Notes: generated by a model not told the origin, from the sequence alone. Counted from the first letter of the stretch, positions 5,150 to 54,049 are shown. The stretch is 64,000 nt of DNA from an uncultured Gammaproteobacteria bacterium (GCA_964504365.1 CAZDDW010000002.1:53246-117245); one strand, 5' to 3'. A program made the numbers and translations.

Positions 5150-5716
5150 ATGGAGGTAGCATTAGTTGACCTTATCTTGGTCATAATTATTGGCGGTTTT
5201 GTGTTTTATGGTGCGTTTTTCGGGTTTATCCACAGCCTAGGAAGTTTGATTGGTGCCATTATTGCCGCGATTATTACGAGTCGAATAATTGATACGGTTT
5301 TTGACTGGATTGGTTTTATTTTCGGCGGCGGACATTGGGGTCGGATTATTCTGTTTGTTATAATTTTCTTGATAATAACCAAAGTTGTTGGGATGCTATT
5401 TGCAATCGTTGATAAAATCTGGTCGGTTGTGCCATTTGGAAAATCATTAAATCGATTATTAGGACTGGTGTTTGGTTTTATCGAAGGTGTGATCGTGATC
5501 GGAATAGTTTTGTTCTATGCCATGCAATACCTACCAGAAGAAGGCGTGCGCTCAGTACTTGAAATGTCAGCAGTTGCAGATTATTTACTAATGGTTGCTG
5601 GTGTTGTTTCGATCTTGATGCCAGTTGCAATAGAACAAGCAACAGAAGCGGTTCAGAATATTGATGTGGATGTTCCTGACATTGATATTGATGTCCAGAT
5701 CACGCCGACTGAGTAG
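5150..5716 (+). CDS. CvpA-family membrane protein
   Basis: A 188-aa protein with four hydrophobic helices. The N-terminus resembles colicin V production protein CvpA. Confidence 0.55.
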   Translation: MEVALVDLILVIIIGGFVFYGAFFGFIHSLGSLIGAIIAAIITSRIIDTVFDWIGFIFGGGHWGRIILFVIIFLIITKVVGMLFAIVDKIWSVVPFGKSLNRLLGLVFGFIEGVIVIGIVLFYAMQYLPEEGVRSVLEMSAVADYLLMVAGVVSILMPVAIEQATEAVQNIDVDVPDIDIDVQITPTE

Positions 5717-6671: not shown

Positions 6672-6762
6672 TCTAGCAAGTCCGAGTACCTGATGCGCGC
6701 CAGCAAAAGTAAAAGACGCCACCCGCGGGGGTGACGTCGATGAGAAACGTGAAGGAACTGGT

Positions 6763-8517
6763 CTAGGCTTGGTCTGCCGGCTGTTCCGAACTGGCCTCGG
6801 CTTCCTTCTCGGCCGCAGGTGCCGGTTCGGAAGGCTTGGCCTCGGTCTCGGCACCACTGGAGTCCGGTGCTTCGGCCGCAGGCTTACGAGGCCTACGGGG
6901 CCGACGCCGACTTCGCTTGCGCGGTGCCGGCTCCTCGGAACCTTCCTCAGCCGCTGACTCGGCTTCGGCTTCGGCCCTGGCTTCCTGGATCCGATCGACC
7001 AGTTGGTCGACCTGTTCCGAATCCACCAGACACCTGGCCGCCTTGATCAAGACGGTCGCCCGGAAACCCATGATTCCGGGATGAACACGCCCAGCCCAAC
7101 CACCACGACGCACGGCCTTGTAGCCGGTGTCATGTCCGCGGTCGAGCTGATCGAAGCTCACACCGAGCATGAGCTCGAGCTTGGCCAGGATCGTATCGGC
7201 ATCGGCATCGTCCTCGAGACCCAGAACCGTCAAGGCCTGGTATCTCTCGGGAACGCCGCTACCACGAACACTGAAGAGGAATTCCCCCTTGCCAAGAGCC
7301 AGCTTGATCGCGATTGCCCGTGCTTCACGCAAGAGCGCCTTGCGCACCTTGCGTCCGTCGGACGAGCTCGGATCACCAGACCACCTTGCGCTGCGCATGG
7401 CCTGGAAAGCCACATCTGAGGCATGGTCTGCCTGAAGCTGCTCGGACTTGATGACCAGAGCCGCATCGAACAGATCAGCCACCTCACCCTTGCCAGCACT
7501 CATGGTCTTGCCGACCAGAGCCATGACGTAGATCTTCACACGACCGCCGTCAGGCTGGGGAATCCAAACCTGGTTGTTGTACTTGGTCAGACCTGTCATG
7601 ACCAGCTCACGCCGGGCATCCTCGATGACCTGCAAACGCTCTTTGCGCCCCTGGTCAGAACTCGGATCACCCGGGAAGCCAGCATTGATCATGACCTGGA
7701 AGACCGGATCGTCAGCGCCTGGATCTCGAACATCGCTCAAGGCCTTGGCCCGCGCATCGACTGCGTTCGAACTGGTCTTGTCCGATTCGGAATCGAGTCC
7801 GAACATTTCCCAGCAGCTCATGAACGTACCAGTGCGTGCCACGATCGATCCCGGGGGACAGATCAGGGCTTCGGCCTTGGACTCATCGATCTTGACCGTG
7901 CCATCGTTGAACTCGCCGGCATCGACCATCTGCGCAGTTGCCCGCGCAGTGGCGTGGATCAAGCCAGGGTGCATCACCTTGAACATGATCGGAACCTGGG
8001 AACGATCCTTGACCGCACCGGCCTCGATCTCGTCGTCGTAGTACGGGGCCTCGTTCTGAGGACCGCGCCAGAGAACCTCTGCACCACGGAAATCACCGAT
8101 CCAACGCTGACCCTTCTTGGTGAAAGCGACGTAAAGGAAGTTGCGGTCAACAACCTCACCATCCAGCGCACCCTCTTCGCCGAGCCAGGTATGCTCGAAC
8201 ATCGGCCACGCCAGACTGGTGTTCCCGCGCATCGCAGACGGCTTCACAGCCACGCAGATGATCGGCGCACCCAAGCGCACCAACAGCCTGGTCGGATCCG
8301 GAATGACCACCTCGAATGTCTGGCCGCCTTCCACAGGCGTGAACTGACCAAGCACTCTTCCGCGATACAATCCATCTTCTCCCGTGGTACCAGGACCGTC
8401 GCTGCCAAAGAAGACCTGACCGTAGGAAAGATCACTCTGCCGGAAACGGTGTCCCAGCGGATGAAAAACCTCTCTGTTGATCCTGATCATCTCTTGTCTG
8501 TACATTTCGTCACTCAT
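6763..8517 (-). CDS. Hypothetical 584-aa protein from high-GC islet 1, with an internal duplication and a Lys/Arg/Pro-rich C-terminal tail
   Basis: Long ORF in a ~62% GC region, with GGAGG 7 nt upstream of ATG. Two internal segments resemble each other (SDVRDPGADDPVFQVMINAGFPGDPSSDQGRKERL and SDVAFQAMRSARWSGDPSSSDGRKVRK). The C-terminus (PRKRSRRRPRRPRKPAAEAP, followed by an acidic stretch) looks like a histone-H1-like disordered tail. A hairpin plus TTTTACTTTTG terminator follows downstream on the minus strand (~6700-6740). Confidence 0.6.
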   Translation of the reverse strand: MSDEMYRQEMIRINREVFHPLGHRFRQSDLSYGQVFFGSDGPGTTGEDGLYRGRVLGQFTPVEGGQTFEVVIPDPTRLLVRLGAPIICVAVKPSAMRGNTSLAWPMFEHTWLGEEGALDGEVVDRNFLYVAFTKKGQRWIGDFRGAEVLWRGPQNEAPYYDDEIEAGAVKDRSQVPIMFKVMHPGLIHATARATAQMVDAGEFNDGTVKIDESKAEALICPPGSIVARTGTFMSCWEMFGLDSESDKTSSNAVDARAKALSDVRDPGADDPVFQVMINAGFPGDPSSDQGRKERLQVIEDARRELVMTGLTKYNNQVWIPQPDGGRVKIYVMALVGKTMSAGKGEVADLFDAALVIKSEQLQADHASDVAFQAMRSARWSGDPSSSDGRKVRKALLREARAIAIKLALGKGEFLFSVRGSGVPERYQALTVLGLEDDADADTILAKLELMLGVSFDQLDRGHDTGYKAVRRGGWAGRVHPGIMGFRATVLIKAARCLVDSEQVDQLVDRIQEARAEAEAESAAEEGSEEPAPRKRSRRRPRRPRKPAAEAPDSSGAETEAKPSEPAPAAEKEAEASSEQPADQA

Positions 8518-8624
8518 TGTTCGCCTCCATCTGCCTCTTGGGCAGTATTCGTGTTGTTCTGGTTAAAATGACCGTTGTCGTCCTTTTTATTAGACTGATC
8601 AGACTACCATAGTTTTTTGCCTTT

Positions 8625-8681
8625 GTCAAGCCTAAATAGCCTAATTAAGGCTTGACAGAACTGGTATTTTGTGTTAACTTA
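8625..8681. promoter_or_regulatory. Symmetric divergent promoter
   Basis: TGTCAAGCCT (8625-8634) and AGGCTTGACA (8648-8657) are reverse complements, and each arm contains a TTGACA -35 box. On the plus strand, TTGACA is followed by 18 nt and then TGtTAACTT. On the minus strand, TTGACA is followed by 17 nt and then TGgTAGTCT. Confidence 0.6.
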
Positions 8682-8722
8682 GGTTGTTATTAGCTCATTC
8701 ACACACTTACGGAGGACAGTAA

Positions 8723-9739
8723 ATGGTCCCTGCAGACGAACGAGAAACGATCGATGACGAGACTCAGATGGATATCAGGGTCGTAGAAGCGAGTATCAGC
8801 CCCTGGGTTGATGATCTACGAACCAATTTCCCTTACTGGCCGGATGAGGATGACGGTGAACAGCCACCAACGTTCACCCAGGCCAGGGAAGAGGACGCCG
8901 CGGATGAACGCTTCCGAGAGCTTTGCGATGATTCTGGTCTAGCTGCTGATCTGATCATCATCGTTCTGGAAGGGATCGATACGGACCTGGAAACCGATCC
9001 TGTGCCGGAAGACCTGTTCCAGGAAGCTCGGAATCGGATCGAGGCAGAAGACGACAGCCTCACCGTTCAGCTGATTGACATTGCTCTGCGCTACCTCTTG
9101 TACACGGATTCGAACAACGAAGACGACAACAGAAAACACGCAGCAGCAATCAAGGATGCCTTGAGTCAGCCGGAAGCATCAAAGGAGGCGAATGAACCTG
9201 CGAAAACCGCAGCTGAGCCGAAGACTCCGGCCAAGCCCGGGGTTCCACCCAAGCCTTCGATGCCTGGAGAAGGTGGTGCAGAAGGTGGTAGGCCCGGAGC
9301 TTTGCGGAAGACTGATGGTACGCAAGAGCAGCCTCCTCCTCCCGAGAAGACTCCACCGGAGGCAACTACTCGAACTACTCAGCCGGCAGAACCGCCACCA
9401 CCGACGCCCCCAGATGGCTCGAGCGATGACGACCTCAAGGCAGAGCCACGCTACGTAGAGCTGCTTGCAGCTGCACAGCGAAACATCACCAAAGCAAGAG
9501 CTGGAGAAGCTCCGGCTCAGCTCTGGCTGGATGTGACTGTGTCAGACTTGCGTAAGGGAACAGGCGTTGGTTCACGAACCCACCCCAACCCGATTTACGC
9601 AAGACTGGCTGCTGATGGGACGACCATCCGAACAGGCTTCGATCACAGGGACAAGAACGCCCGTGCCAGAAGCCTTCTGGTCCGAGAAATCCAGGCTCTG
9701 GTCACTCAGGCCGGCCTGAAGATCAACCGCCTGCGTTAG
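8723..9739 (+). CDS. Hypothetical acidic protein with a Pro-rich linker (islet 1)
   Basis: 338 aa with a GGAGGA SD site. The N-terminus is acidic, the middle has PPKP/PPPPTPP low-complexity sequence, and a C-terminal domain follows. A TGCCGCTCAGC...GCTGGGCGGCA hairpin lies downstream at ~9750-9780. Confidence 0.6.
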   Translation: MVPADERETIDDETQMDIRVVEASISPWVDDLRTNFPYWPDEDDGEQPPTFTQAREEDAADERFRELCDDSGLAADLIIIVLEGIDTDLETDPVPEDLFQEARNRIEAEDDSLTVQLIDIALRYLLYTDSNNEDDNRKHAAAIKDALSQPEASKEANEPAKTAAEPKTPAKPGVPPKPSMPGEGGAEGGRPGALRKTDGTQEQPPPPEKTPPEATTRTTQPAEPPPPTPPDGSSDDDLKAEPRYVELLAAAQRNITKARAGEAPAQLWLDVTVSDLRKGTGVGSRTHPNPIYARLAADGTTIRTGFDHRDKNARARSLLVREIQALVTQAGLKINRLR

Positions 9740-9868
9740 CAGGAACTCATTGCCGCTCAGCTCAGCTGGGCGGCATCTTAATTTCCATAAATTTTATACC
9801 CTTGATCTTTTTACGCCTTTGTTATACACTACGGGCGAAATTTTTAGGCTAGTGAATACATTTACTCT

Positions 9869-10195
9869 ATGAGTGAGGACGCAACCATATCGCAGATCCA
9901 AGATGCAGAAAAAGCTGCTGCAGATCGGATCCTTGAAGCAGAAAAAAGTGCTCAACAAACTATAAATCAGCTTGAGGACGGATATCAAGACAAGTTGTCA
10001 CAAGTGAAAGAAAGTCTTGATTCAGAACGAGGGCAAGTTGTAGAAAAAATCCAAAAACAAGCTACAGCCTTTAAAGAGGAGATTTGTGAACAATCAAAAA
10101 AAGAGATGACTGCGATGAAGAAGGATTCTGAAGGCAGAATCAGTTCAGCTGCTGGATACGTAAAAGATCAGTTTCTAGAATATGTCCGTCAGTAA
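9869..10195 (+). CDS. V/A-type ATP synthase peripheral-stalk subunit (G/H-like)
   Basis: A 108-aa charged coiled-coil protein that is the first gene of the V-type operon. Its size and position match ntpF/atpH. Confidence 0.5.
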   Translation: MSEDATISQIQDAEKAAADRILEAEKSAQQTINQLEDGYQDKLSQVKESLDSERGQVVEKIQKQATAFKEEICEQSKKEMTAMKKDSEGRISSAAGYVKDQFLEYVRQ

Positions 10196-12143
10196 AATGG
10201 CAAAAATCCGGTTGACTGCGGTAAAAGATGTTTATGATCAGGTGATCGACATCTTGCATTCTGATGGGGTAATCGAGATAGAACAGGTTGAGGCTGAAGA
10301 AAAGGACCTTTATCGTCCTGATTCAAAAGCTGAATATTGGCAAACTAACGTAAAGTTTGCCCTGGATTTGCTCAAGGACTATCAAGATGAAGAGAAAAAG
10401 AGCTTTTTAGACAAATTGAAAAGTGCAAAGCAGGAAGTTGATAATAGTGATATAGAGAAACTACTTTCTGAGTTTGATTACAAAAAAGTTGTTGCTGAAC
10501 TAGAAAATTTGGACAAAGAGCTTAACGCTGCTAAAAACAAGGTTTCTCAGTACAATAAAGAAAAGAAGTCGCTGCGCGAATGGCAAGGGCTGCCAAAATT
10601 AGAAACGCAAGATCTGCGTTTTGTTGTTTTTTATACCGGAACTGTGCCAGTGATTCATTTCGAAGCCTTTCAGAAAGCAGTGCTTGATCTTGGGACATCA
10701 GAATTGATTCGAATCAATGAAAGCGAGAATGAGATCCGTTTAGTTTTGATCGCTAGCAAAGATCTGGAAACCAAGCTAACAGAACTGTTCGAAACCCATG
10801 ACTTCAAGACGGTTGAGTTGGATCTAAACGGGGCAGGGGATATTGATCAGCGTTTGACTAAGCTGGATGAATTGATTGGGTTTGATCAGAAGGTGATGAC
10901 TGAAGTTCAGGACAAAATTAAAAAATTCGCACCGCATCTGAGCAAATTTCAGATCTTGTATGATTATTTAACATGGAAAAAAGAGCAGGATGACGCTTCT
11001 CGTAAAGCTTTGGTTACAGGCGAGACTGTTAGTTTGATTGGGTGGCTACCACAGAATAATATTGCAGATGTAAGTAAGCATATCGACACAGTAACCGATC
11101 AGTACATGATCGAGGAACTTGAGATCAAAGAAGATGAGAACATTCCAATCGTTCTGAGCAATCCAAAAGCAGTCACACCATTTGAATCTGTAACTGAAAT
11201 TTATGGCGCGCCATTATACAACGAACCGGATCCGACTATTTACTTAGCACCATTCTTTATTGTTTACTTTGCGCTTTGTTTAACTGACGCTGGATATGGA
11301 ATTTTGCTTTCGCTTCTTGCTTTCGCTGCTTTGAAACTAATGAAACCAAAAGGTTCAGCCAAGAAACTGATCCAGCTATTAATTGCTGGTGGAGTGGCCA
11401 CGTTTGTTGCTGGAGCGCTCTTCGGTGGTTGGTTTGGTATCGTAATTGCGGATCTGCCAAACGGTATAATCAAGGACGCGGTAAATGCAGTTCGTATCAT
11501 CGATCCTGTACAAAATCCAATGACCGTACTGATCATGTCACTGATTCTGGGTTTTATTCAGTTAGTTATTGGAAACTTGGTTGGTATGTTCTGGAAGATT
11601 CGTCATGGACAGGTCATGGATGGAATACTTGATAGTGGAGTCTGGGCTTTGTTCCTGCTGATGATTGGTTTCTGGATCACAGTTAAAGTCGAAGTCCTGC
11701 CAGTATCACTAATAACTTTTGCTAATGTTGTTCTACTGCTCGGAATCCTAATGCTGGTCGCAACACAAGGGCGTCAGCACAAGAACGTGTTCGTAAAAAT
11801 TGGAGCTGGTGTAGCAAGTTTGTATGGTCTGGTTGGATATTTAAGCGACGTGCTTAGTTACTCACGTTTGTTAGCACTTGGACTTTCAACCGGAATTATC
11901 GCCATGGTTGTTAACTTGGTTGCTGATCTGTTTGCTGGAATGATCCCGTTTGTTGGTTGGTTGGTCTGGATCCTGATTATTGTTGGCGGTCACTTATTTA
12001 ATTTGATTATCAATGTACTTGGAGCTTTTATTCACGCAGGACGTCTGCAGTATGTCGAATACTTCCCGAAATTCCTTGTCGGTGGTGGACGAAGATTCAA
12101 GCCGTTGGTAAAAGAAGCTAAATATATAACTATTAAAAGTTAA
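10182..12143 (+). CDS. ntpI: V/A-type ATP synthase subunit I (a-subunit)
   Basis: 653 aa. The N-terminal hydrophilic coiled-coil region is followed by ~7-8 TM helices. It is in operon context. Confidence 0.85.
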   Translation: MSVSKMAKIRLTAVKDVYDQVIDILHSDGVIEIEQVEAEEKDLYRPDSKAEYWQTNVKFALDLLKDYQDEEKKSFLDKLKSAKQEVDNSDIEKLLSEFDYKKVVAELENLDKELNAAKNKVSQYNKEKKSLREWQGLPKLETQDLRFVVFYTGTVPVIHFEAFQKAVLDLGTSELIRINESENEIRLVLIASKDLETKLTELFETHDFKTVELDLNGAGDIDQRLTKLDELIGFDQKVMTEVQDKIKKFAPHLSKFQILYDYLTWKKEQDDASRKALVTGETVSLIGWLPQNNIADVSKHIDTVTDQYMIEELEIKEDENIPIVLSNPKAVTPFESVTEIYGAPLYNEPDPTIYLAPFFIVYFALCLTDAGYGILLSLLAFAALKLMKPKGSAKKLIQLLIAGGVATFVAGALFGGWFGIVIADLPNGIIKDAVNAVRIIDPVQNPMTVLIMSLILGFIQLVIGNLVGMFWKIRHGQVMDGILDSGVWALFLLMIGFWITVKVEVLPVSLITFANVVLLLGILMLVATQGRQHKNVFVKIGAGVASLYGLVGYLSDVLSYSRLLALGLSTGIIAMVVNLVADLFAGMIPFVGWLVWILIIVGGHLFNLIINVLGAFIHAGRLQYVEYFPKFLVGGGRRFKPLVKEAKYITIKS

Positions 12144-12147
12144 AATT

Positions 12148-12621
12148 ATGGGATTAGGAATTGCTCTTGCGGTATGTGGTGCCGCATTAGCCATCGGTCT
12201 TGCCGGAGCTGGTTCAGCCCTAGGAATGGGTGCAGCTGGACAAGGTGCCGCTGGTGTTGTTTCTGAAGATCCAGAAAAGTTTGGTAAAGCATTGCTTTTC
12301 GAAGCTCTTCCAGGAACACAGGGAATCTACGGATTCTTGGCTGCGATCATGATCTTGCAGAAAATTGGTCTGCTTGGTGGTGAAGTTGTGGCAATAAGTC
12401 CAGAAACTGGTTGGGCCATTTTATTTGCTGGTTTACCAATCGCTATTACTGGTTTAAGTTCTGGTTGGATGCAGGGACGTGTATCTGCTGCAGGTATGGG
12501 TGTGCTAGCAAAACGACCAGGTGAAGCTGGAAAAGCAATCATTCTTTCAGCCATGGTAGAAACCTATGCTGTGCTTGGTTTGCTGATTACCATTCTCTTA
12601 GTCACTAGTATTTCCGTTTAA
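12148..12621 (+). CDS. ntpK: V/A-type ATP synthase proteolipid subunit K
   Basis: 157 aa with four TM helices and a Gly/Ala-rich proteolipid sequence (duplicated c-subunit type). Confidence 0.85.
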   Translation: MGLGIALAVCGAALAIGLAGAGSALGMGAAGQGAAGVVSEDPEKFGKALLFEALPGTQGIYGFLAAIMILQKIGLLGGEVVAISPETGWAILFAGLPIAITGLSSGWMQGRVSAAGMGVLAKRPGEAGKAIILSAMVETYAVLGLLITILLVTSISV

Positions 12622-18415: not shown

Positions 18416-18429
18416 AATAGATTAAATAG

Positions 18430-18468
18430 GCGGGGTCCCTTGACCCCGCTTTTTGTTTATGCTAAGTT
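18430..18468 (+). terminator. Intrinsic terminator of the ATPase operon, fused to an islet promoter
   Basis: GCGGGGTC-cctt-GACCCCGC hairpin followed by TTTTTG. The TTGACC inside the 3' arm, followed by 17 nt and TGcTAAGTT, forms a promoter for the downstream islet gene. Confidence 0.7.
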
Positions 18469-18496
18469 CTGGCCAGGACATTGAAAGGAGACACTT

Positions 18497-19162
18497 GTGA
18501 AAATCGACGGAAACGAATTCGTTGTTGCTTCTTCTGACATCGGACGCATCAGAGCTGGGTACATCTTCATGCGCCGGGCTGAGCGAGAGGGCTGCCGGGT
18601 CGAAGACCTGGACAAGCTTCAGGTTCGTTTCCAAAACGGACCCGAGACAAGCTCGTATACCCAGGTGGAACTCCAGCACCTGCTCGACCTGATGGGCCAA
18701 TCTTGCAGCGAAACCGACGTCCTGCGTGAACTCGGGATCGTGCCCGGTTACCGCGGGCATCTGCCCCCGGCCTGGAAGGCCGCCTACCTCTACCGCGGTG
18801 ACCAGGAGTTCCTGCTCGGTGACATCTGGCTCGACGAGTCTGCTGTTTGCCGAATCGCCCGGCGTCTGCACAGCATGCAGCAGGACGAAGAAGAGCACTG
18901 CGTGACCGTTGTCCTGCGCGAGACCTTGCCCGAAGAACTCTTCGACAAGCCGGACCAACTCACGCCCGAACAGGTACGTGAGCATGCCGCCATCGTCATC
19001 AGGCATGGCGAAATCATCTTCAGCGTCCCGTCCCACCGTGACGGCTGGGGCCCGCGTGGATTCGGTGAGCTGGCCATCAGTGCACTGAATGGCAGCTTCC
19101 TGGCCCTACTCGAACACGCCAAGTTCACCTCCACCCGCCTGCACACGCCGGCAAGCTCCTAG
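18497..19162 (+). CDS. Hypothetical protein, paralog 1 of an islet-2 pair (GTG start)
   Basis: 221 aa in high-GC sequence, with an AAAGGAG SD 7 nt before GTG. It shares domain order and motifs with the next gene (…F(Q/E)NGP…Y..V.LQ.LLD.M..SC.E.D(V/I)LR…(I)VPG(Y/F)…). A hairpin plus T7 terminator lies at 19169-19195. Confidence 0.65.
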   Translation: MKIDGNEFVVASSDIGRIRAGYIFMRRAEREGCRVEDLDKLQVRFQNGPETSSYTQVELQHLLDLMGQSCSETDVLRELGIVPGYRGHLPPAWKAAYLYRGDQEFLLGDIWLDESAVCRIARRLHSMQQDEEEHCVTVVLRETLPEELFDKPDQLTPEQVREHAAIVIRHGEIIFSVPSHRDGWGPRGFGELAISALNGSFLALLEHAKFTSTRLHTPASS

Positions 19163-19254
19163 CACTTCAGCGACCACACTGGTCGCTTTTTTTATATCTT
19201 GACATAGCACTTAGTCCATGCTAAGTTCTGCTCAGCACCTTGAAAGGAGCGAAG

Positions 19255-19911
19255 ATGGAACCCACGCCAAACGGAGTTCACATTCTCGATACTGACATCG
19301 GCAATGTTTCTGCGCTAGACGTTTTCCGTCTCGACGCCGAGACCGAGCGTGAGCGCGACCTGGAGCACCCGGATCACATCCTGGTCACCTTCGAAAACGG
19401 CCCTGGGCCAGCTGAGTACGACCGTGTTGCTCTTCAGCTTCTGCTCGATCGCATGAGCATGTCCTGTGGTGAGGGCGACATCCTGCGCAAGATCAAGATC
19501 GTTCCTGGCTTCATGGGCATAACGTTTCCAGCCCACTGGGAGGACGTGGTCCTGTTCGATGGTAATGGCAATTACCTGGTCCACCCTGTCTCGCTCGACG
19601 AGGTCGCTGTGGTCCTTATCGCCAAGAGTCTGCATGACGAAAAGCTGTTCGGTGAGCGCCATGCCGTAGTCGTACTGCGTCGCTCAGACCTGCCCGAGGA
19701 CTGGAAGCCCGGTGATTCGATCGAGGCCGAGTTCATGATGAACACAGCCACCATCGTCATCAACCACAACAACGTCTACCTGCTTTCGTCTGGTGCCCAA
19801 CACTACAAGGCGATCAGCTTCGGTGACGTTCACATGGCCAAGCGCCAACAGCGTGACTCGCACTCCTTCACCATGTACACCTCGACCCGTTTGCGGCCGC
19901 CGATGCCGTAA
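19255..19911 (+). CDS. Hypothetical protein, paralog 2 of an islet-2 pair
   Basis: 219 aa with an AAAGGAG SD. The upstream leader ATGCTAAGTTCTG…TTGAAAGGAG is nearly identical to that of paralog 1. A CCCGC…GCGGG+T5 terminator lies at 19920-19940. Confidence 0.65.
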   Translation: MEPTPNGVHILDTDIGNVSALDVFRLDAETERERDLEHPDHILVTFENGPGPAEYDRVALQLLLDRMSMSCGEGDILRKIKIVPGFMGITFPAHWEDVVLFDGNGNYLVHPVSLDEVAVVLIAKSLHDEKLFGERHAVVVLRRSDLPEDWKPGDSIEAEFMMNTATIVINHNNVYLLSSGAQHYKAISFGDVHMAKRQQRDSHSFTMYTSTRLRPPMP

Positions 19912-19979
19912 CGCACACACCCGCCTCAGCGCGGGTTTTTAATTCGTGGAAAAGATGGGGATATTAAAAACAAAAACCC

Positions 19980-20008
19980 TTGACACGAATGCCTAGGATC
20001 GATACGCT
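19980..20008 (+). promoter_or_regulatory. Sigma70-like promoter (TTGACA-17-TACGCT) with no ORF downstream
   Basis: TTGACA is at 19980-19985 and TACGCT at 20003-20008. No ORF of 60 aa or more follows on either strand before the terminator at ~20232. Confidence 0.5.
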
Positions 20009-20015
20009 GGAAGTG

Positions 20016-20262
20016 AGCCGGGGATCGCGCTAGTTTAGTTAAGTTCAAGAGGGTAGGACTGTGAAAACAGAAACCGATCTGCGGGAGGAACAAAGCACTG
20101 AAAGAGACGGGGATCGCATAGGAAGCTATAAAGTCACTGCAACTCTACGAGTGTCATGACCTGATAAGGTACAGCCTTTCAAAGGGGGAAGACCCTGAAG
20201 AACACCTGGATTGGAGAACTCGGCTCAAACAAAAAACTGACCCTGCGGTCGGTTTTTTGTAA
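20016..20262 (+). ncRNA. Candidate ~245-nt small RNA (unclassified)
   Basis: Bounded by the promoter above and by a hairpin terminator ACTGACC-ctgc-GGTCGGT+TTTTTTGT at 20234-20262. The complementary ends GAGCCG (20017-20022) and CGGCTC (~20222-20230) can close a long stem. No coding potential was found. Confidence 0.4.
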
Positions 20263-20265
20263 TCT
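20228..20265. terminator. Bidirectional intrinsic terminator (A-run/hairpin/T-run)
   Basis: CAAACAAAAAACTGACCctgcGGTCGGTTTTTTGT reads as a hairpin with a U-run on both strands. It would serve the plus-strand sRNA and the minus-strand gene 20294-20611. A second hairpin GACAGGC-gtaa-GCCTGTC lies at 20270-20288. Confidence 0.6.
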
Positions 20266-20293
20266 GAGGGACCGACAGGCGTAAGCCTGTCAT

Positions 20294-20611
20294 TTAAGTT
20301 CCTTGCTCGACTCGCTGCAATGCATGTAACTCAGCGTTGAGCTGCTGAACACCAGGATGCTGATCAGTATAACTATAGCCTTTTAGCAAATCTCGATCAC
20401 CTGTAATACTGCGTCGAGCATCTTCAATTTTAGCTTTTCGTGTAGCTCCTTCAAGGCCTTCAAATCGCTGTGCAAACACGATCATGGCCTGCTGAATGGC
20501 TGCGCTGTCTAGTGTATCAGCCGAAACCATGTCTGGTTGTGATTCAACCTCAGGCACCATGCTGGCCGCAGCTTCTTTTTGAGCTGCTCGTTTACCAAAA
20601 AATTCTAACAT
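20294..20611 (-). CDS. Hypothetical 105-aa protein (islet 2)
   Basis: ORF with an upstream TTGACA-17-TAAGAT promoter on the minus strand at ~20640-20670. Confidence 0.45.
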   Translation of the reverse strand: MLEFFGKRAAQKEAAASMVPEVESQPDMVSADTLDSAAIQQAMIVFAQRFEGLEGATRKAKIEDARRSITGDRDLLKGYSYTDQHPGVQQLNAELHALQRVEQGT

Positions 20612-20698
20612 AAAGTATCAGTTAATTTTTGTTTATCTTAGGCTGTTTGGGGTCAAGTGTCAAGGGTGACTAAGAAGGGAATGACACACTTCAGTGTG

Positions 20699-21052
20699 TC
20701 ATTTGACAGACTTACGTCTGTCAGTCCCACAAAGAAACAACACCCCAATCACCAGTAACGGCAATGTCGTGACAAGTAAAGAGAACAGCATTTCTTCAAG
20801 ATTGAACAGGAAAATCGGGAGCATAGCCAGCAGCACAAACATCCACCCGCCGATACCCGGTCGTATCCAAGAAACCCATAATGCGCCCAGGATCAATAAC
20901 GTCGGGACGTTGTGCATGAATAACGCAACAATCATCTCGTACCAGTGATAATCTTCTGCAAAAACATCGAGGGACATTAGGGCAAAGAAGACGGCGAGCA
21001 AGATAACCAGAACTCGCGGAAGCCATTTGAGAACTTTGTTTAGCATACTCAT
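20699..21052 (-). CDS. Hypothetical small membrane protein (3-4 TM helices), islet 2
   Basis: Hydrophobic ~117-aa ORF. The start is reassigned to MSMLNK so that the upstream palindrome and the TTGTGTCAAG…TGcTAGAAT promoter become non-coding. Two perfect hairpins, ATGACACAC-ttca-GTGTGTCAT and TGACAGAC-ttac-GTCTGTCA, sit at and within the 3' end (20681-20723). Confidence 0.55.
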   Translation of the reverse strand: MSMLNKVLKWLPRVLVILLAVFFALMSLDVFAEDYHWYEMIVALFMHNVPTLLILGALWVSWIRPGIGGWMFVLLAMLPIFLFNLEEMLFSLLVTTLPLLVIGVLFLCGTDRRKSVK

Positions 21053-21067
21053 ACATTCTAGCACACC

Positions 21068-21093
21068 TGTCACGTCGCTCGCGAGCGACGTGA
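21068..21093. promoter_or_regulatory. Perfect 26-bp palindrome GTCACGTCGCTCG|CGAGCGACGTGAC between the -35 and -10 elements (candidate operator)
   Basis: Exact reverse-complement symmetry, read directly. It lies between divergent genes 20699-21052(-) and 21160-21489(+). Confidence 0.7.
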
Positions 21094-21159
21094 CTTGACA
21101 CAATCAACTTTATCTGATAAGTTACTTCCTTCTCAACGAAGACAAAGGAGGGAAGTACT

Positions 21160-21489
21160 TTGGAACTCAGACATCGAGAATTGGTGAGAATAAACCTGGA
21201 AGGCGCCACGATCATCGAGCATCGTCCGGATTGCCCAGTGGCTGGCAAGATCGACACCGCAAGCTTGGCTGCTGTGATCGGGATGAGCTGGAGACACCTC
21301 GAAGACGGAACGTGGCGTGACACCGTGTTCACGACCGATTCCTGGCGATTCGAGCGACAGGGCGACGTGATCTTCTTCCACCGCACCGAACCCAACGATG
21401 TGTCACGTGGTTTCGATCAGCCCGACCTCACGACCGATCTGTACACCATCGTCCTGCCGAACACGCGGGAAGTCAGCCCTGGCTGGTAG
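21160..21489 (+). CDS. Hypothetical 109-aa protein (TTG start), islet 2
   Basis: AAGGAGG SD 7 nt before TTG, high-GC codon usage, and a terminator at 21514-21538. Confidence 0.55.
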   Translation: MELRHRELVRINLEGATIIEHRPDCPVAGKIDTASLAAVIGMSWRHLEDGTWRDTVFTTDSWRFERQGDVIFFHRTEPNDVSRGFDQPDLTTDLYTIVLPNTREVSPGW

Positions 21490-21513
21490 GACCGTTTACC
21501 TCAGACTCCACTT

Positions 21514-21570
21514 GACCCACCTCGGGTCTTTTTCTTTTGGGTTGACAATTTGTGTAGATTCAAATATATT
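21514..21570 (+). promoter_or_regulatory. Terminator-promoter module copy 1
   Basis: GACCCacctcGGGTC hairpin, then TTTTTCTTTTG, then TTGACA (21543-21548), 16 nt, and TATATT. Confidence 0.7.
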
Positions 21571-21605
21571 AACGCTGGTTCCTGAACAAAATTACAGGAG
21601 AAATC

Positions 21606-21944
21606 ATGCTTCCAGGCAACCGGCCAACAGGAAGAAGAATGACAAAACAAGGTCCGCAAGAAGCCAGAAGACTCCCGGACCAAGTCAGCGGCCCTCTGCT
21701 GTACTCGTATCTCCAAGGCATAGCCCGCGCCATGACTGACGGGGCAGTATTGATCAACAGTACGACAACCACTTTCTCGCGTGCCAGCGTCATTTCTGTT
21801 CTCAAGGCACAGAACATCCATGAGAGTGACATCGCCGAGGCCATCACGTACTGCTTGGATAATGATCTACTCATCGAAGAACACGATGGCTTCCACATGA
21901 CCACCTTCGGGCTGACCAGTACTCGCCCCAAGCGCCGGTTATAG
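21606..21944 (+). CDS. Hypothetical small protein, paralog 1 of a tandem islet-2 pair (possible winged-helix DNA-binding fold)
   Basis: 112 aa. Its C-terminal ~75 aa align with the next gene: LLYSYLQGIARAMTDG…FSRASVISVLKAQNIHESDIAEAITYCLDNDLLIEEHDGFHMT against SLYSRLWDVATAMSAG…FPRASIVAVLQSMGIREERVERAIQYCLRNGLLEERDDGFHLV. Confidence 0.6.
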   Translation: MLPGNRPTGRRMTKQGPQEARRLPDQVSGPLLYSYLQGIARAMTDGAVLINSTTTTFSRASVISVLKAQNIHESDIAEAITYCLDNDLLIEEHDGFHMTTFGLTSTRPKRRL

Positions 21945-21994
21945 CAAAACCAATGGACACACACTGGGCCTAGCCCCATCTAGACCTAAATCTC

Positions 21995-22054
21995 GACCCG
22001 TAAACTGGGTCTTTTTTCTTTTGGGTTGACAAAATACGTGGAAATTGGTTTACT
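21995..22054 (+). promoter_or_regulatory. Terminator-promoter module copy 2
   Basis: GACCCgtaaactGGGTC hairpin, then TTTTTTCTTTTGGGTTGACAA, 17 nt, and TTTACT. Confidence 0.7.
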
Positions 22055-22093
22055 TGTCCCAGAACGATCATTCATACACGAAAGGGGCAACAA

Positions 22094-22438
22094 ATGCTCT
22101 CAGACAACTATCCCAATGAATGCAGGGAACGGCAGCAACCGCGACGAGACCCTCGGCCCAGGGGTCCCATGGTCGACAGCTTCTCGCTGTACTCTCGGCT
22201 GTGGGACGTAGCCACGGCCATGTCCGCAGGCGGCAAGGGGTTCCCCAGGGGAACCGAGATCGCTTTCCCACGCGCCAGCATCGTGGCCGTGCTCCAGTCT
22301 ATGGGTATTCGTGAAGAGCGAGTCGAACGGGCCATCCAGTACTGTCTGCGCAACGGCCTGCTCGAGGAGCGTGATGATGGTTTCCACCTGGTCCAGAGCG
22401 AGCTGTCGTCCTTCCGCATGACGATGCGCCGCATCTAG
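22094..22438 (+). CDS. Hypothetical small protein, paralog 2 of the tandem pair
   Basis: 114 aa with an Arg/Pro-rich N-terminus. The C-terminal domain is paralogous to 21606-21944. Confidence 0.6.
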   Translation: MLSDNYPNECRERQQPRRDPRPRGPMVDSFSLYSRLWDVATAMSAGGKGFPRGTEIAFPRASIVAVLQSMGIREERVERAIQYCLRNGLLEERDDGFHLVQSELSSFRMTMRRI

Positions 22439-22450
22439 ACCACACACCTC

Positions 22451-22510
22451 GACCCAACCCTGGGTCTTTTTCTTTTGGGTTGACAAACCGCGAGATGGAA
22501 GGTAAGTTCT
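22451..22510 (+). promoter_or_regulatory. Terminator-promoter module copy 3
   Basis: GACCCaaccctGGGTC hairpin, then TTTTTCTTTTGGGTTGACAA, 17 nt, and TAAGTT. Confidence 0.7.
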
Positions 22511-22526
22511 AGACAAGGAGGCCCTC

Positions 22527-22736
22527 ATGAGAGAACCGCAACCTGCAAGCGTGCTCCGAGCCTGCTTAGCAGCAAATCAAGGCTGCAGAATCGAATACTT
22601 CGATGATGGAGGATCGATCGAACTTCAGCCTAGATTTGTCCTGGAGGACATGCATGTCCGCGGTCGTACGTGCAAGCGCGGAACGCGTGTATCTGTTCCT
22701 TTATTCGAACCGATCAAGGGCGTCACTCCTCTCTAG
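22527..22736 (+). CDS. Hypothetical 69-aa protein (islet 2)
   Basis: AAGGAGG SD 6 nt before ATG. A GAGTCTTTAAAGGCTC+TTTTTCTTTTG terminator follows, running into the TGgTATAAT extended -10 of the helicase gene (~22745-22780). Confidence 0.5.
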   Translation: MREPQPASVLRACLAANQGCRIEYFDDGGSIELQPRFVLEDMHVRGRTCKRGTRVSVPLFEPIKGVTPL

Positions 22737-22871
22737 CACCACACCTGAGTCTTTAAAGGCTCTTTTTCTTTTGTGGTATAATGGGGCCGGAAAATAAGCT
22801 TGTCGCACGTGGCACGTCGCATGTCGTCTCCAGAACGACGCGCGACCTCCGACGCGCGACGCACACCACAT

Positions 22872-30186: not shown

Positions 30187-32103
30187 ATGTTTTTTCGTAA
30201 AAACAACAACGAACCTAACCCTTTTGGAATCGAGACCAGTCAATTTAAAAACCTTCAGATGGAAAACCTGGAGGACAAATCAACGATTTCTCAGACAGTG
30301 CTTGACCAAGAGGTTGGTGGTAAATCCGGGGGCTTTCTTGGATTAACTATTTCTTTGCGCAGAATGAAACTTTGTTTAATCCTGACCCTTTTTGTGATTG
30401 GAATTTTATTTGCTAAAGCAGCACACTTACAAATTATCCAAGGAAGTCAGTACCGCTCGCTAGCAGAAGGAAACCGGATACGAATTGAATCCATACAAGC
30501 AGCTCGTGGTGTTGTTTACGATCGCAACCAGAATCTACTTATAGAAAACGTGCCCGCATTTACTGTTACTTTGACAGATGGAGATATCCCGGATAGCGAA
30601 CGAGAGCAAGTGCTAGATGACCTGGCTGATATCTTGAACATGCCTCGTGGTGAAATAGAAGCCTTGCTTGAGGAATATAAGGACGTGCCTTATGAACCAG
30701 TACCAATTGCTCGTGGTGTTGGCCATGAGCGGGCAATGGCGATTGCTTCTCAGCAACAAACCTTACCAGGTACAGATCTGACTTTATCGACTTTGCGATC
30801 CTATGCAACTGATGCTGCCCGATCTTTGTCACATGTTCTAGGTTTCTTGGGCAAGATTTCACCAGATGAAATCGATACGCTGTCTGCTGAGTACCGTCGT
30901 ACGGACGAGATTGGTAAGCAGGGAATCGAGGAAGCTTATGAAACAGAGCTGCGTGGGCAATCCGGACAAAAGGTTGTTGAAGTTGATGCCCGTGGATTTG
31001 AAGCAGCTATTATTACAGAAAAAGCTCCTGTTGATGGAACAAATATTACTTTATCGATCGATGCAGACCTTCAGTCTTTCATAGAAATGCGCTTGTTGGA
31101 AAATCAAGAAACCTCAGGAGACAACAAAGCAGCTGTGGTAGCACTGGATCCGAATAACGGGGAAGTGTTGGCTTTGGTTAGTCTGCCTACTTTTGACAGC
31201 AATGATTTCTCAGGTGGAATTGATAGTGCTGCTTACGGTTTGTTGATCAATGATGAAAGCCAACCTTTATTTCCGAGGGCAATCTCGGGCGAATATCCTT
31301 CTGGTTCAACCTTCAAGCCGATCGTTGCTGCCGCAGCTTTGTCCGAAGGCCTGATTAGTGAGTACACCAGCTTTTTATCCGAAGGCGGGATTGCGATTTC
31401 TTCTTGGTTTTTCCCGGACTGGAAAGCTGGTGGGCATGGCATGACTGATGTGCGCAAGGCAATAGCTGAATCTGTTAATACCTTCTTTTACATTATCGGT
31501 GGTGGTCTGGATGATTTTGTTGGACTGGGCGTAGCTAGGATCACTAAGTATGCCGCCTACTTTGGACTAGGATCACTAACCGGTATTGAGATAGCTGGCG
31601 AAGCTGAAGGATTTTTGCCGTCAAAAGAATGGAAAATGGAATACAAGAACGAGCGCTGGTATGTTGGTGATACATATCATTTAGCTATTGGGCAGGGTGA
31701 TATCTTAGTTACACCGCTTCAGATTGCTAGCATGACTTCTGTTTTTGCAAATGGTGGTATGTTGTATCAGCCGCATTTGTTGCACGATGCTGAATCAGAA
31801 GGATCTAACGTAAACGAGAAGGTCGGTGCCGACTCAATCCGAATCGTCAGCGAGGGAATGCGACAAGCTGTTACTGAAGGATCGGCTCGCTATCTGCTAA
31901 CTGTGACTGAACCAGTGGCTGGCAAAACCGGAACCGCACAAACCGGAGGTGACAAAGATTATCACGCCTGGTTCACTGGCTTTGGCCCATACGAAGACCC
32001 AGAAATAGTTTTAACAATTCTAGTTGAGGAAGGCGGCGGCGGCTCAGAGGTCTCTGTACCAATCGCCCGAGATATATTCAACTGGTGGTTTGCTAATCGA
32101 TAG
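30187..32103 (+). CDS. mrdA: Penicillin-binding protein 2 (elongasome transpeptidase)
   Basis: All three active-site motifs are present: SxxK (SGSTFKP), SxN (ESVNTFF) and KTG (KTGTAQ). An N-terminal TM helix is present. It is in the mreBCD operon. Confidence 0.9.
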   Translation: MFFRKNNNEPNPFGIETSQFKNLQMENLEDKSTISQTVLDQEVGGKSGGFLGLTISLRRMKLCLILTLFVIGILFAKAAHLQIIQGSQYRSLAEGNRIRIESIQAARGVVYDRNQNLLIENVPAFTVTLTDGDIPDSEREQVLDDLADILNMPRGEIEALLEEYKDVPYEPVPIARGVGHERAMAIASQQQTLPGTDLTLSTLRSYATDAARSLSHVLGFLGKISPDEIDTLSAEYRRTDEIGKQGIEEAYETELRGQSGQKVVEVDARGFEAAIITEKAPVDGTNITLSIDADLQSFIEMRLLENQETSGDNKAAVVALDPNNGEVLALVSLPTFDSNDFSGGIDSAAYGLLINDESQPLFPRAISGEYPSGSTFKPIVAAAALSEGLISEYTSFLSEGGIAISSWFFPDWKAGGHGMTDVRKAIAESVNTFFYIIGGGLDDFVGLGVARITKYAAYFGLGSLTGIEIAGEAEGFLPSKEWKMEYKNERWYVGDTYHLAIGQGDILVTPLQIASMTSVFANGGMLYQPHLLHDAESEGSNVNEKVGADSIRIVSEGMRQAVTEGSARYLLTVTEPVAGKTGTAQTGGDKDYHAWFTGFGPYEDPEIVLTILVEEGGGGSEVSVPIARDIFNWWFANR

Positions 32104-32166
32104 CTTGACTTTTAAACTAAGGATTGGTAGTTTTTAACTACCGTACACTCAAACTGGGGGTTTGAA

Positions 32167-32754
32167 ATGACAGGGCAGAGAAGCCTTACTGACATGATTC
32201 GTGAAGACCTGGTGTGGGAACCGAGCGAGGATGAGTTGACCGAACTGATGGCCAACAGCGAACCGATCCGGATTGATCCCGTACGTCAGGCGGCTTTCGC
32301 ACAAAAGATGCGGCAGCGCTGCGAGCTTGCTCGTCAAGACCAACCACTACTCCAGCGAGCACGCCGGCTGTTGACCGAGTATCTGGACGATCTGACCCGC
32401 CCATTCGCGGAAATGACCTTTGTTAACTTCCTCGAGCTGCTCAGGCGCGATCTGGGGATAGATGACGAGCGTCTGGCTCGAGTGTTCCTTGCCAGCCCTG
32501 CACTGTTCGCAGAACTCAAGGAGCCGTACGTCTACGACATCCACGGCCTGGCCAACCTGCTCGGAGGTCTAGGCATGGATCCATGTGACTTCGAAACCTC
32601 GATGCGCATCCCGGATCGTATCGAGCACTGGGACCTGGCTCCACTGACCTGGATCACGAACCCGGAACCTCCGACCACATATCTCAACCGGCCGCACTGG
32701 CTGTATCAGCTCGAAGAGGTACTGCACCGTCGGCAGATGGAGCTTGCCTCATGA
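32167..32754 (+). CDS. Hypothetical 195-aa protein (islet 3)
   Basis: High-GC ORF with a GGGGG SD. Confidence 0.5.
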   Translation: MTGQRSLTDMIREDLVWEPSEDELTELMANSEPIRIDPVRQAAFAQKMRQRCELARQDQPLLQRARRLLTEYLDDLTRPFAEMTFVNFLELLRRDLGIDDERLARVFLASPALFAELKEPYVYDIHGLANLLGGLGMDPCDFETSMRIPDRIEHWDLAPLTWITNPEPPTTYLNRPHWLYQLEEVLHRRQMELAS

Positions 32755-32939
32755 CCAGGGGTGCACGACGACGTCCCACCCCAGACGAACTCGAAGAGCG
32801 CGAACGAACTGCTCGCGGCATCGAACGCTTTGTGGAACAGCTGCCACCTGGCAGAGCTCGTGACACGATTGCCAAGCTGGCTGATATCGCTCGCAGCAAG
32901 AACCGTCGCGCCTTGCATCCGCACAGCTGCTCTCACTGA
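32751..32939 (+). CDS. Hypothetical 62-aa Arg-rich protein, translationally coupled to the preceding gene (ATGA overlap)
   Basis: The start overlaps the stop of 32167-32754. A CCCCACAcctGTGGGG+CTTTTTCTTTT terminator follows at ~32943-32972. Confidence 0.4.
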   Translation: MTRGARRRPTPDELEERERTARGIERFVEQLPPGRARDTIAKLADIARSKNRRALHPHSCSH

Positions 32940-33018
32940 CACCCCACACCTGTGGGGCTTTTTCTTTTCACAAATTTATGCTAAGCTCAGCGTGCTGTTT
33001 TACAAAAGGGAGGACGCA

Positions 33019-33402
33019 ATGTTCGATTGGAAACAGGCAGAAAAAGTAGCCAAACGTCTGGAGCAAGAACCAGAGCACACCGAAAGCCTGACTTGGATGA
33101 CAAAATTCATTGCCGGTAGCACGGTAATGGAATGGCTCATCTGTGTCATGATGATGACCACACTCAGTTTTGGTGTCGCGAACATTGGTCAAACAGTTGG
33201 CCTCAACGAGCATATCAGTCTTGTACTGGTCTTCCTGATCGGACTGACCTGTCTGTACTGCTGGGGCTCTGTGGCCTTTAGTAAGTTCACTCTGGTCTTT
33301 TTCGATCTCAAGCGCTGGCGCTGGTCGTCTTCGTTCTTTCCCTTGGCTGCATACTGCCTGATCTTCGGTATTTTCATGTCTCTTAGAGAATCATCTGGAT
33401 AG
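33019..33402 (+). CDS. Hypothetical membrane protein (3-4 TM helices), islet 3
   Basis: AAGGGAGG SD 5 nt before ATG. An ATGCTAAGCT-type promoter lies upstream. Confidence 0.5.
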   Translation: MFDWKQAEKVAKRLEQEPEHTESLTWMTKFIAGSTVMEWLICVMMMTTLSFGVANIGQTVGLNEHISLVLVFLIGLTCLYCWGSVAFSKFTLVFFDLKRWRWSSSFFPLAAYCLIFGIFMSLRESSG

Positions 33403-52813: not shown

Positions 52814-52919
52814 AGTGTTTCCTTTCTCTGTGGATTGTAATGGTTCAATGAATTAGACCTTAACAATCCTGTTCAGACTTGTCAAAATAAAAGACTCCGC
52901 AGTGATGCGGAGTTTTGAG

Positions 52920-53771
52920 TTACTCCTCCTCGCCGTTGTCGTCTTCTTCATCCGGATCCGGCTGTTGCTGGATCGGTCCTTCTGGCTGAACAAAGAAGAC
53001 TGGCCTGGCTTCTAGCTCGGTCGCCGGAATCCCTTCGTCCTGCAACAACTTTAGTAAAGCCGATTCGAACTCACCGAAAGTTGCGTGCACAAATTTGGGA
53101 CGAAAGCGCTCCTCAACGGAGTCAAAGAACTCCAGATGATCCCAAATATCTCCTGCCGGAAACATGTATGAGAACCGCGGATGACTACTTGTCCCTATAC
53201 CAGCACTAAATCGCACTGGCACTGTCTGGATCAACAGGCGGGCCACCGGTTCATCAATCCCACCTCCTGAGAACTGGGGGTACTTTAAATCAACGATTAG
53301 TTGTCTGCCCCCTGCCAGGAAACAGCGCAAATCAAATTTGACACCGGAAAGCAATATTGAGAAAAAGGACATTCTCCTGTCATCTTCATAATCAGGACTG
53401 CACCTATCCGATATGACGTAACGACCTCGTTCCCTGCTCAGTGATGGTAAGCGGAGCTCGTTCCTTTCGACACGCTTCCCGTAATACCCACGCAACGTTT
53501 TACGGTTTCGATCAAGTAGCGCTTGTGCCACCTGATCTTTATAGGTTGGCCGACCCTTGGCAGCCACACCCTTATTCATCCAACGCCAATCAGCTTGTAG
53601 CTGCTTGAAATCAGGTGGCAAGAGTCGACAGTCGGCTGGCACAAAATCAGGATCAGCATGCATCCTTTTCAGGTGCTCAACGCTTCGCGACAGCAAGAGC
53701 AACTTCTCGTAGAAGTCACGCATACCACACTGCGCGATATCGCGCCAAAGTTCGGAAGTAAAAAGAGCCAT
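52920..53771 (-). CDS. Hypothetical 283-aa protein with an acidic C-terminal tail (islet 5)
   Basis: GGAGATG SD. A terminator ACTCCGCA…TGCGGAGT+TCTTTTATTTTGACAAG lies downstream on the minus strand. Confidence 0.55.
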   Translation of the reverse strand: MALFTSELWRDIAQCGMRDFYEKLLLLSRSVEHLKRMHADPDFVPADCRLLPPDFKQLQADWRWMNKGVAAKGRPTYKDQVAQALLDRNRKTLRGYYGKRVERNELRLPSLSRERGRYVISDRCSPDYEDDRRMSFFSILLSGVKFDLRCFLAGGRQLIVDLKYPQFSGGGIDEPVARLLIQTVPVRFSAGIGTSSHPRFSYMFPAGDIWDHLEFFDSVEERFRPKFVHATFGEFESALLKLLQDEGIPATELEARPVFFVQPEGPIQQQPDPDEEDDNGEEE

Positions 53772-54049
53772 TTCATCTCCAGGCTTGTTGGAATTATCAC
53801 CGGTCTTTTTTCAAAGACGCATTGCCCTACTAGCCAAGCAGGATCGGGACACCCCAAGCTCCATTTCAGAGCTACATCCGGGGAGGTTCCTACAGCCCAC
53901 CTCTATTTCAGAGGTGTTGTCACATGCACCACGCACCAAGCTGTATTCTGCACTTTTCAGCACATCTCTTCTGGATGACATGAAGAGGACTTTCACCTTA
54001 ACAACCCAAACCTATTTCGTCAAAAAAAATCTCCGCATGGGTTGCGGAG

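Follow-up and report, generated by a model that had tools for sequence, protein, structure and literature searches.

A candidate structured RNA family beside the V-type ATPase operon of Uhrbacteria-like Patescibacteria

Positions 20015-20260 (plus strand) of the window, by which we mean the whole 64-kb stretch of DNA that was analysed, very probably encode a structured non-coding RNA whose family is missing from Rfam. As the best explanation of the data we propose, with a probability of roughly 0.6, a stand-alone structured non-coding RNA of a new family which would act in trans as an accessory folded particle binding a partner. The more specific part of this proposal, namely a trans-acting mechanism through protein or ligand binding, is drawn from analogy and is tentative, at somewhat less than even odds. 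What we regard as the decisive evidence beyond chance is the conservation of the element, with covariation, in four other genomes. The original prediction of a stand-alone small RNA of ~245 nt agrees with the sequence comparison: promoter, closing stem and terminator are conserved in five genomes, the predicted fold covaries, and the coordinates given were correct within a few bases.

Results

Genomic setting and homologues of the RNA

The window has a GC content of ~44% and carries a V-type ATPase operon along with genes for a UvrD/PD-(D/E)XK helicase, MreBC and PBP2. For its V-ATPase D (94% identity) and for a neighbouring island protein family, the closest relatives with a name come from metagenome-assembled genomes labelled Candidatus Uhrbacteria, which places the window in the CPR/Patescibacteria. 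Between V-ATPase D and the helicase lies an island (18420-22800) with a GC content of 52-56% as compared to ~44%. It contains the RNA gene and is made up of small orphan genes that each have a terminator and a TTGACA promoter of their own.

Relatives of V-ATPase D and of the 218-aa protein encoded next to the RNA served to gather contigs, which were searched by nhmmer and with a covariance model. Four homologues were detected with nhmmer E-values of 1e-24 to 1e-112; covariance-model scores ranged from 213 to 267 bits in the five genomes. The genomes that carry the homologues are uncultivated, Uhrbacteria-like Patescibacteria. The relevant loci are as follows.

L021, 14030-14300, strand of the V-ATPase operon: homologue (nhmmer, covariance model)
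L025, 8171-8418, strand of the V-ATPase operon: homologue (nhmmer, covariance model)
L032 (GCA_054038955.1), 11158-11414, strand of the V-ATPase operon: homologue (nhmmer, covariance model)
L034 (GCA_965231015.1), 11717-11973, strand of the V-ATPase operon: homologue (nhmmer, covariance model)
L027 (Candidatus Uhrbacteria GCA_043811105.1), 9860-10000: site of the RNA deletion, with the upstream GGATAT box and the terminator hairpin retained
L021, 12711-13919; L025, 6854-8062; L027, 10001-11200: gene for a protein of 399-402 aa (72-85% identity, weak HD-domain signal)

The position of the RNA is the same in all five genomes, 3' of V-ATPase D, on the operon strand and before the UvrD/PD-(D/E)XK helicase, and a covariance-model search returned one copy in the window. 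Near-identical contigs (at least 99.7%) were present in several marine metagenomes, among them Cariaco-type anoxic samples such as JGI 3300009374 and SCRA20/SUTE22; the RNA region of these same-strain copies was 100% identical, so that no variation was gained from exact-protein look-ups.

L027, with 94% identity in subunit D, precisely lacks the stretch that runs from the -35 element to the start of the terminator. This clean loss indicates that the RNA is dispensable, or at least not fixed at the V-ATPase locus, and its occurrence in a close relative argues against an essential housekeeping role. A filter-free covariance-model search of L027, L038, L039 and L041 gave nothing above 13 bits, and the RNA is absent near the V-ATPase operon in the latter three.

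DNA patterns representing the invariant blocks had zero matches in viral contigs, metagenome contigs and genome contigs. A search of GTDB species representatives with two invariant blocks gave no further members, although such exact patterns would miss diverged copies. Four 19-mer matches in genome contigs from unrelated phyla were close to chance expectation by estimate and were rejected by the covariance model, and BLASTN found no match to the RNA in phage genomes or plasmids. The distribution known so far is five genomes of one CPR clade.

Predicted promoter and terminators

The features of the RNA unit in the window, in order of position, are listed here.

19919-19945, plus strand: intrinsic terminator of the upstream gene (stem 19919-19936, then TTTTT), ending the 218-aa gene
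19947-19964, plus strand: upstream box TGGA-N6-TGGGGATAT, ~15-30 nt 5' of the -35 element
19980-20008, plus strand: predicted promoter of the small RNA (-35 TTGACA at 19980-19985, 17-nt spacer, -10 TACGCT at 20003-20008)
20014-20054, plus strand: 5' strands of P1 (P1a 20014-20023, P1b 20030-20039, P1c 20043-20046, P1d 20050-20054)
20015-20227, plus strand: predicted structured RNA core of ~213 nt with the P1a-d rod, P2, P3, P4 and P5 (covariance-model matches of 213-267 bits in five genomes)
20056-20075, plus strand: P2 hairpin (CUGU/ACAG stem, 20059-20062 with 20067-20070; GAAA tetraloop 20063-20066)
20061-20159, plus strand: 32-codon GTG ORF inside the RNA, rejected as a gene
20078-20088, plus strand: 5' strand of P3, pairing with 20175-20185
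20095-20154, plus strand: P4, a long irregular hairpin of 22 pairs, 11 of them with double changes
20157-20173, plus strand: P5, a short hairpin with double changes in three of six pairs
20175-20227, plus strand: 3' strands of P3 and P1d-a, containing the nearly invariant ACAGCCUU...AAGGGRGAARAC
20229-20260, unstranded: intrinsic terminator of the small RNA (A-tract, stem, U-tract; from a repeat search)

We infer from the conserved promoter and terminator signals that the RNA is transcribed. The predicted sigma-70-type promoter at 19980-20008 would start a transcript at ~20015-20016, with GAGCCGGGGAUCGC as first bases, and the intrinsic terminator at 20229-20260 would end it. The promoter, which had been described as a consensus promoter, was found at the coordinates claimed; its -35 TTGACA is indeed perfect, but the -10 TACGCT is weak and matches TATAAT at only three of six positions. 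This poor match explains why the promoter is absent from the list of a generic promoter scan. In the alignment, TTGAC of the -35 element is invariant and the TA...T of the -10 element is kept in all five sequences. The -10 hexamers of the homologues match TATAAT at three or four of six positions, and a TGG extended -10 motif is present in three of the five sequences.

On its 5' side the unit is preceded by the terminator of the 218-aa gene (19919-19945), which together with the small RNA's own terminator insulates it on both sides. The TGGA-N6-TGGGGATAT box is kept in the window, L021 and L025, i.e., in the three closest genomes, and also in L027, which lacks the RNA; the alignment did not show it to be clearly conserved in L032 or L034. 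The box may serve to bind a regulator of the RNA promoter, or may be an UP-like element.

The arms of the small RNA's terminator (20229-20242 and 20247-20260) are 93% complementary, enclose a 4-nt loop and are flanked by A6 before and T6 after. It thereby has the GC-containing hairpin, the U-run and the upstream A-run of an intrinsic terminator. The hairpin is conserved in the five genomes, with double changes in five of 13 pairs. As the original prediction had held, the A-tract before and the U-tract after the stem would enable it to work in both directions, and in the window it is shared with a convergent 105-aa gene (20294-20611, minus strand). A perfect 7-bp hairpin, GACAGGCGTAAGCCTGTC, is located at 20274-20291, between the stop codon of the 105-aa gene and the shared terminator. 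A 21-nt complementarity of the RNA 3' end with 18450-18470 was dismissed as chance; it is rich in A/T runs and lies in a promoter, not in a transcript.

Secondary structure and invariant nucleotides

The ~213-nt core is predicted to fold into a rod (P1a-d) that leads to a junction with P2 and then to a second junction with P3, P4 and P5. P1, a long and irregular rod, consists of four segments and is closed by pairing of the RNA's 5' and 3' ends: 20014-20023 pairs with 20218-20227 (P1a), 20030-20039 with 20205-20214 (P1b), 20043-20046 with 20200-20203 (P1c) and 20050-20054 with 20192-20196 (P1d). Its outer end corresponds to the closing stem recognized initially, in which GAGCCG (20015-20020, claimed to start at 20017) is complementary to CGGCTC (20221-20226), and this complementarity is conserved in the five genomes. 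The 3' strand CUCGGCUC (20219-20226) thus pairs with the transcript 5' end at a distance of ~200 nt.

The first three-way junction carries P2, a hairpin whose length differs among the genomes. Its sequence is CUGU-GAAA-ACAG in the window, CUAC-GUAA-GUAG in L025, CGAUG-GAAA-CAUCG in L032 and CAGUA-GAAA-UACUG in L034, while a 23-nt insertion extends the hairpin stem in L021. In four of the five sequences a GNRA tetraloop caps P2 (GAAA in three, GUAA in one). P3 leads to the second three-way junction with P4 and P5.

All five sequences share, without any change, UGAGCCGGGGAUCGC in the 5' strand and the first internal loop. Further invariant clusters are CCGAUCU after P2, GGAAYAAAGC before P4 and ACAGCCUU...AAGGGRGAARAC on the return strand. 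Invariant nucleotides are concentrated in internal loops and junction strands, a pattern characteristic of RNAs that adopt a defined tertiary structure and offer a surface for binding, and not of antisense small RNAs with a linear seed. By analogy, the GNRA tetraloop and the invariant loops and junctions would be hallmarks of such a tertiary fold.

A repeat search found GGGGATCGC twice, inside a 14-nt repeat at 20015-20028 and 20104-20117. The repeated motif that had been pointed out is therefore present in the window; its second copy, however, is specific to this genome, and only the first is kept in the homologues.

Covariation and selection

Covariation was evaluated on a model-based alignment of five sequences with 87 pairs; controls consisted of registers in which the 3' partners were slid by one to three columns, and of 500 shuffles. 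Standard pairs occupied 91.6% of the pair cells as compared to 31-48% in the slid registers, and compensatory changes on both sides were seen in 28 of the 87 pairs, as opposed to one to eight. The observed covariation score was reached by none of the 500 shuffles. The five distinct sequences belong to one clade, and shared ancestry can inflate such counts, an effect against which the slid-register control argues. Compensatory pairs were present in every helix except P1a, which varies on the 3' side only, and the invariant 2-bp base of P2.

With the terminator included, the fold had a z-score of -4.1 on the plus strand and -1.2 on the minus strand; the value for the core without terminator was -2.3. 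The check proposed at the outset, folding and a search for covariation in homologues, hence came out in favour of the element, as homologues do exist, their helices carry compensatory changes and the plus strand folds with z = -4.1. G-U pairs make up about one in ten paired cells (hand count of the pair table). The RNA was assigned to the plus strand since promoter and terminator are conserved in this orientation, the fold is asymmetric between the strands and the G-U pairs would be A-C mismatches on the minus strand.

Core identity between the genomes was 62-93%. The corresponding values for the V-ATPase D gene were 70-83% at the nucleotide level and 40-59% at third codon positions. The core is thus about as conserved as V-ATPase D and well above third codon positions, which indicates purifying selection on the RNA.

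Neighbouring genes and readings tied to them

The gap between V-ATPase D and the helicase is hypervariable in its cargo: L032 has Fic, methyltransferases, Laminin_G_3 and a tyrosine integrase there, and L039 a single gene. In the window, the RNA is neighboured by the 221/218-aa paralogues upstream and by the convergent 105-aa gene and a DUF7670 gene downstream. Its neighbour is a divergent gene for a 402-aa protein in L021 and L025, an HhH-GPD gene in L032 and a methyltransferase gene in L034. Downstream of the RNA, the next gene has the opposite orientation in four of the five genomes, and the genes found there are unrelated. No protein family was common to four RNA-bearing loci (L025 being too short) and at the same time missing from all RNA-less loci. 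A linkage of the RNA to the 402-aa protein with the weak HD signal was discarded, since L027 encodes this protein but has no RNA, and the window, L032 and L034 have no copy of its gene; for the 399-402-aa protein, the protein database yielded four relatives only. A link to the 218-aa family was likewise discarded, this family being absent in L032 and L034. Scans of the island proteins with Pfam, PADLOC and PHROG were uninformative except for DUF7670.

Several features of the island were noted in passing. It contains two sets of tandem paralogous orphans, 18497-19162/19255-19911 (221/218 aa, 36% identity) and 21606-21944/22094-22438 (112/114 aa, ~43% identity). The ~215-aa family has five detectable relatives among 5.8 billion proteins, at 40-51% identity, while the core genes of these relatives are at 93-95%; judged by these sequence identities, the family's proteins are evolving very fast. 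A terminator-plus-promoter module, GGGTCTTTTTCTTTTGGGTTGACAA, precedes successive island genes (21516-21548, 22000-22032 and 22454-22486, and also 22758-22773), and a 52-nt promoter/5'-UTR module ending in TTGAAAGGAG occurs at 18439-18490 and 19198-19249. Three near-exact copies of the repeated modules compare with 0.02 expected by chance, and the repetition of the terminator-plus-promoter modules suggests duplication or shuffling of cassettes. GC-rich patches (53-60%) whose proteins lack a Pfam match are also found at 6700-9900, 32100-33400 and 52900-54900; it seems that the genome has several islands in which orphan genes are richer in GC. Genes for 23S_rRNA_IVP proteins (PF05635, four-helix bundle) were seen inside the V-ATPase operon of L021, between F and A (5199-5576), and directly 3' of the RNA in L035 (11975-12118).

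The arrangement of neighbouring genes bears on three alternative readings of the RNA. It could be an orphan riboswitch or ligand-sensing leader, with the core as aptamer and the terminator as expression platform for a downstream gene. The terminator begins 2-3 nt past the P1 3' strand, the two three-way junctions with their conserved junction purines resemble large aptamers, and in L032 the HhH-GPD gene (11520-12155) is on the same strand, ~100 nt downstream of the RNA. In its architecture, a compact P1-closed core followed by an intrinsic terminator, with two three-helix junctions and purine-rich strands, the element is also like SreA, EutX/Rli55 and ydaO-type aptamers. Unlike these, it has no consistent downstream gene, given the opposite orientation in four of five genomes and the unrelated functions, and no Rfam riboswitch match: no riboswitch family appeared at E≤10 for the window copy and three homologues. 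Inspection revealed no antiterminator pairing of the core with the terminator arms, and what we take to be a resemblance of the core to ydaO motifs failed the covariance-model test. We consider a riboswitch unlikely.

Somewhat more improbable still is a regulator of the antisense or type I antitoxin kind, directed against the convergent small protein gene. Such regulators are likewise convergent with a small gene, and in three of the five genomes, the window, L021 and L025, a small gene (for 105, 87 and 102 aa, respectively) converges with the RNA on the shared bidirectional terminator; the three proteins are weakly alike, with best BLASTP E-values of 0.003 to 0.05. However, any overlap of the transcripts would be limited to the terminator hairpin, and L032 and L034 bear the RNA without a convergent small gene, so the partner is missing in two RNA-bearing genomes. 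The RNA is also far larger and more structured than typical type I antitoxin RNAs, and antisense action does not require so elaborate and conserved a fold.

We give equally little credence to the RNA being part of a mobile or defence element, be it a guide or scaffold (omega-RNA, bridge RNA, retron ncRNA) or an integration target. Its location in a GC-richer hypervariable island would suit this reading, as would the tyrosine integrase 6 kb from the RNA in L032 and the end-pairing stem, which recalls the a1/a2 repeats of retron ncRNA. Yet at none of the five loci is the RNA adjoined by a gene for a reverse transcriptase, IscB/TnpB, an IS110 recombinase or Cas, the neighbours gave no PADLOC or convincing PHROG matches, and viral contigs, phage records and plasmids held no match to the RNA. 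More specifically, a retron ncRNA (msr-msd) was rejected because, in spite of the terminal pairing, the neighbours have no RT domain and no PADLOC match. An OMEGA or bridge guide RNA was rejected with no nuclease or recombinase beside the RNA in five loci and a single copy in the window, and an att site with no repeat of the RNA 3' end in the L032 island.

Comparison with known RNA families

No match at the Rfam 15 gathering level was obtained in the whole 64-kb window. At E≤10, scans of four members (the window copy, L021, L032 and L034) returned only unrelated, non-recurring matches at chance level, and among them no 6S, RNase P, SRP, tmRNA, group II intron or riboswitch family (including ydaO-yuaA and cobalamin). 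The original prediction had seen no housekeeping RNA in the element, and the Rfam scan for which it had asked accords with this, having given no match in the window copy or the three homologues. ARAGORN found no tRNA or tmRNA gene in the 64-kb window.

It is nevertheless conceivable, albeit very unlikely, that the RNA is a divergent 6S, RNase P, SRP or tmRNA which the standard models miss in CPR bacteria, whose RNAs are often atypical. With ~215 nt and with 5' and 3' ends that pair, the RNA resembles 6S and RNase P RNA, and a loss such as that in L027 would be compatible with the non-essential nature of 6S RNA. The resemblance goes furthest for 6S RNA (SsrS), to which the core is similar in its ~200 nt, its ends paired in a long irregular stem, its own promoter and terminator and its dispensability. 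It differs from 6S RNA in having two three-way junctions supported by covariation, with covarying P2, P4 and P5, in place of the rod with a single large bubble at its centre, and in being lost in a close relative; there was no match to RF00013 and related models. RNase P RNA was rejected for want of an Rfam match, on account of the deletion in L027 and because inspection of the core showed no CR-I/CR-V pair, neither GAGGAAAGUCC nor ACAGAA..GGCUUA. For SRP RNA (4.5S or 6S-type), the SRP covariance models gave no match, and helix-8 motifs were absent from the core on inspection. A tmRNA was rejected in view of the zero ARAGORN genes in the window and the lack of an Rfam match. Absence of the RNA near the V-ATPase operon of L038, L039 and L041 adds to the case against a housekeeping RNA.

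Coding potential

The element had been described as free of ORFs longer than 15 codons. This does not hold when bacterial start codons are allowed, as a 32-codon GTG ORF then spans 20061-20159. Its non-coding character nonetheless stands: a conserved small ORF had been named as contrary evidence, and no ORF is common in frame or extent to the five homologues. A small protein gene, either this ORF or one on the minus strand, with the structure being incidental, is extremely improbable: although purine-rich AGAGGG lies ~7 nt 5' of the GTG ORF and ORFs of 18-82 codons occur on both strands of the homologues, the GTG start, located inside the P2 stem, is replaced in L025, the frame is interrupted by the 23-nt insertion in L021, the ORFs on either strand of the five sequences differ in frame, start and length, indels of 1, 2 and 23 nt in the aligned core break all reading frames, and substitutions are compensatory, not codon-periodic.

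Discussion

The stand-alone structured RNA favoured here would work as follows. Transcribed from its own promoter and released at its own terminator, the RNA would adopt the two-junction fold and act in trans as a folded particle. The invariant internal-loop and junction nucleotides would bind a putative partner; this would most likely be a protein, though a small ligand is also conceivable. Its action is probably not exerted via coding, via cis-regulation of a neighbour or via simple antisense pairing, and it would be accessory, not essential.

Orphan structured small RNAs with their own promoter and terminator are a known kind of feature; the family itself is undescribed and was not found in the literature searched. 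Among orphan non-coding RNAs, the raiA motif RNA (~200 nt) offers a close parallel. It is alike in being a stand-alone unit, in size, in a covarying multi-junction fold with conserved junction nucleotides, in having no coding potential and in a function that cannot be deduced from the neighbours. The present RNA differs from such orphan RNAs in that it has no match to an Rfam model, belongs to a CPR phylum, is known from five genomes only and is located in a hypervariable island.

A bolder proposal, which we regard as doubtful, is that the RNA founds a CPR-specific functional class. Its two-junction fold would sense a metabolite or ion in trans, or it would form a new ribonucleoprotein or a ribozyme, as an accessory module in a V-ATPase-adjacent, hypervariable and possibly host-interaction island.

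The narrow distribution, five genomes of one clade, limits the immediate impact of the finding. It does illustrate that RNA genes missed by Rfam can be recovered when raw sequence is read with an eye to promoter, closing stem and terminator. CPR/Patescibacteria have tiny genomes and have not yet been grown alone, and to our knowledge almost no regulatory RNAs have been described in them. Selection on an RNA of ~215 nt that is as strong as on a core ATPase gene, amid turnover of the neighbouring genes, implies that it must do something specific. The RNA presents a new fold to solve and may provide a handle on regulation, or on a ribonucleoprotein, in these episymbiotic bacteria.
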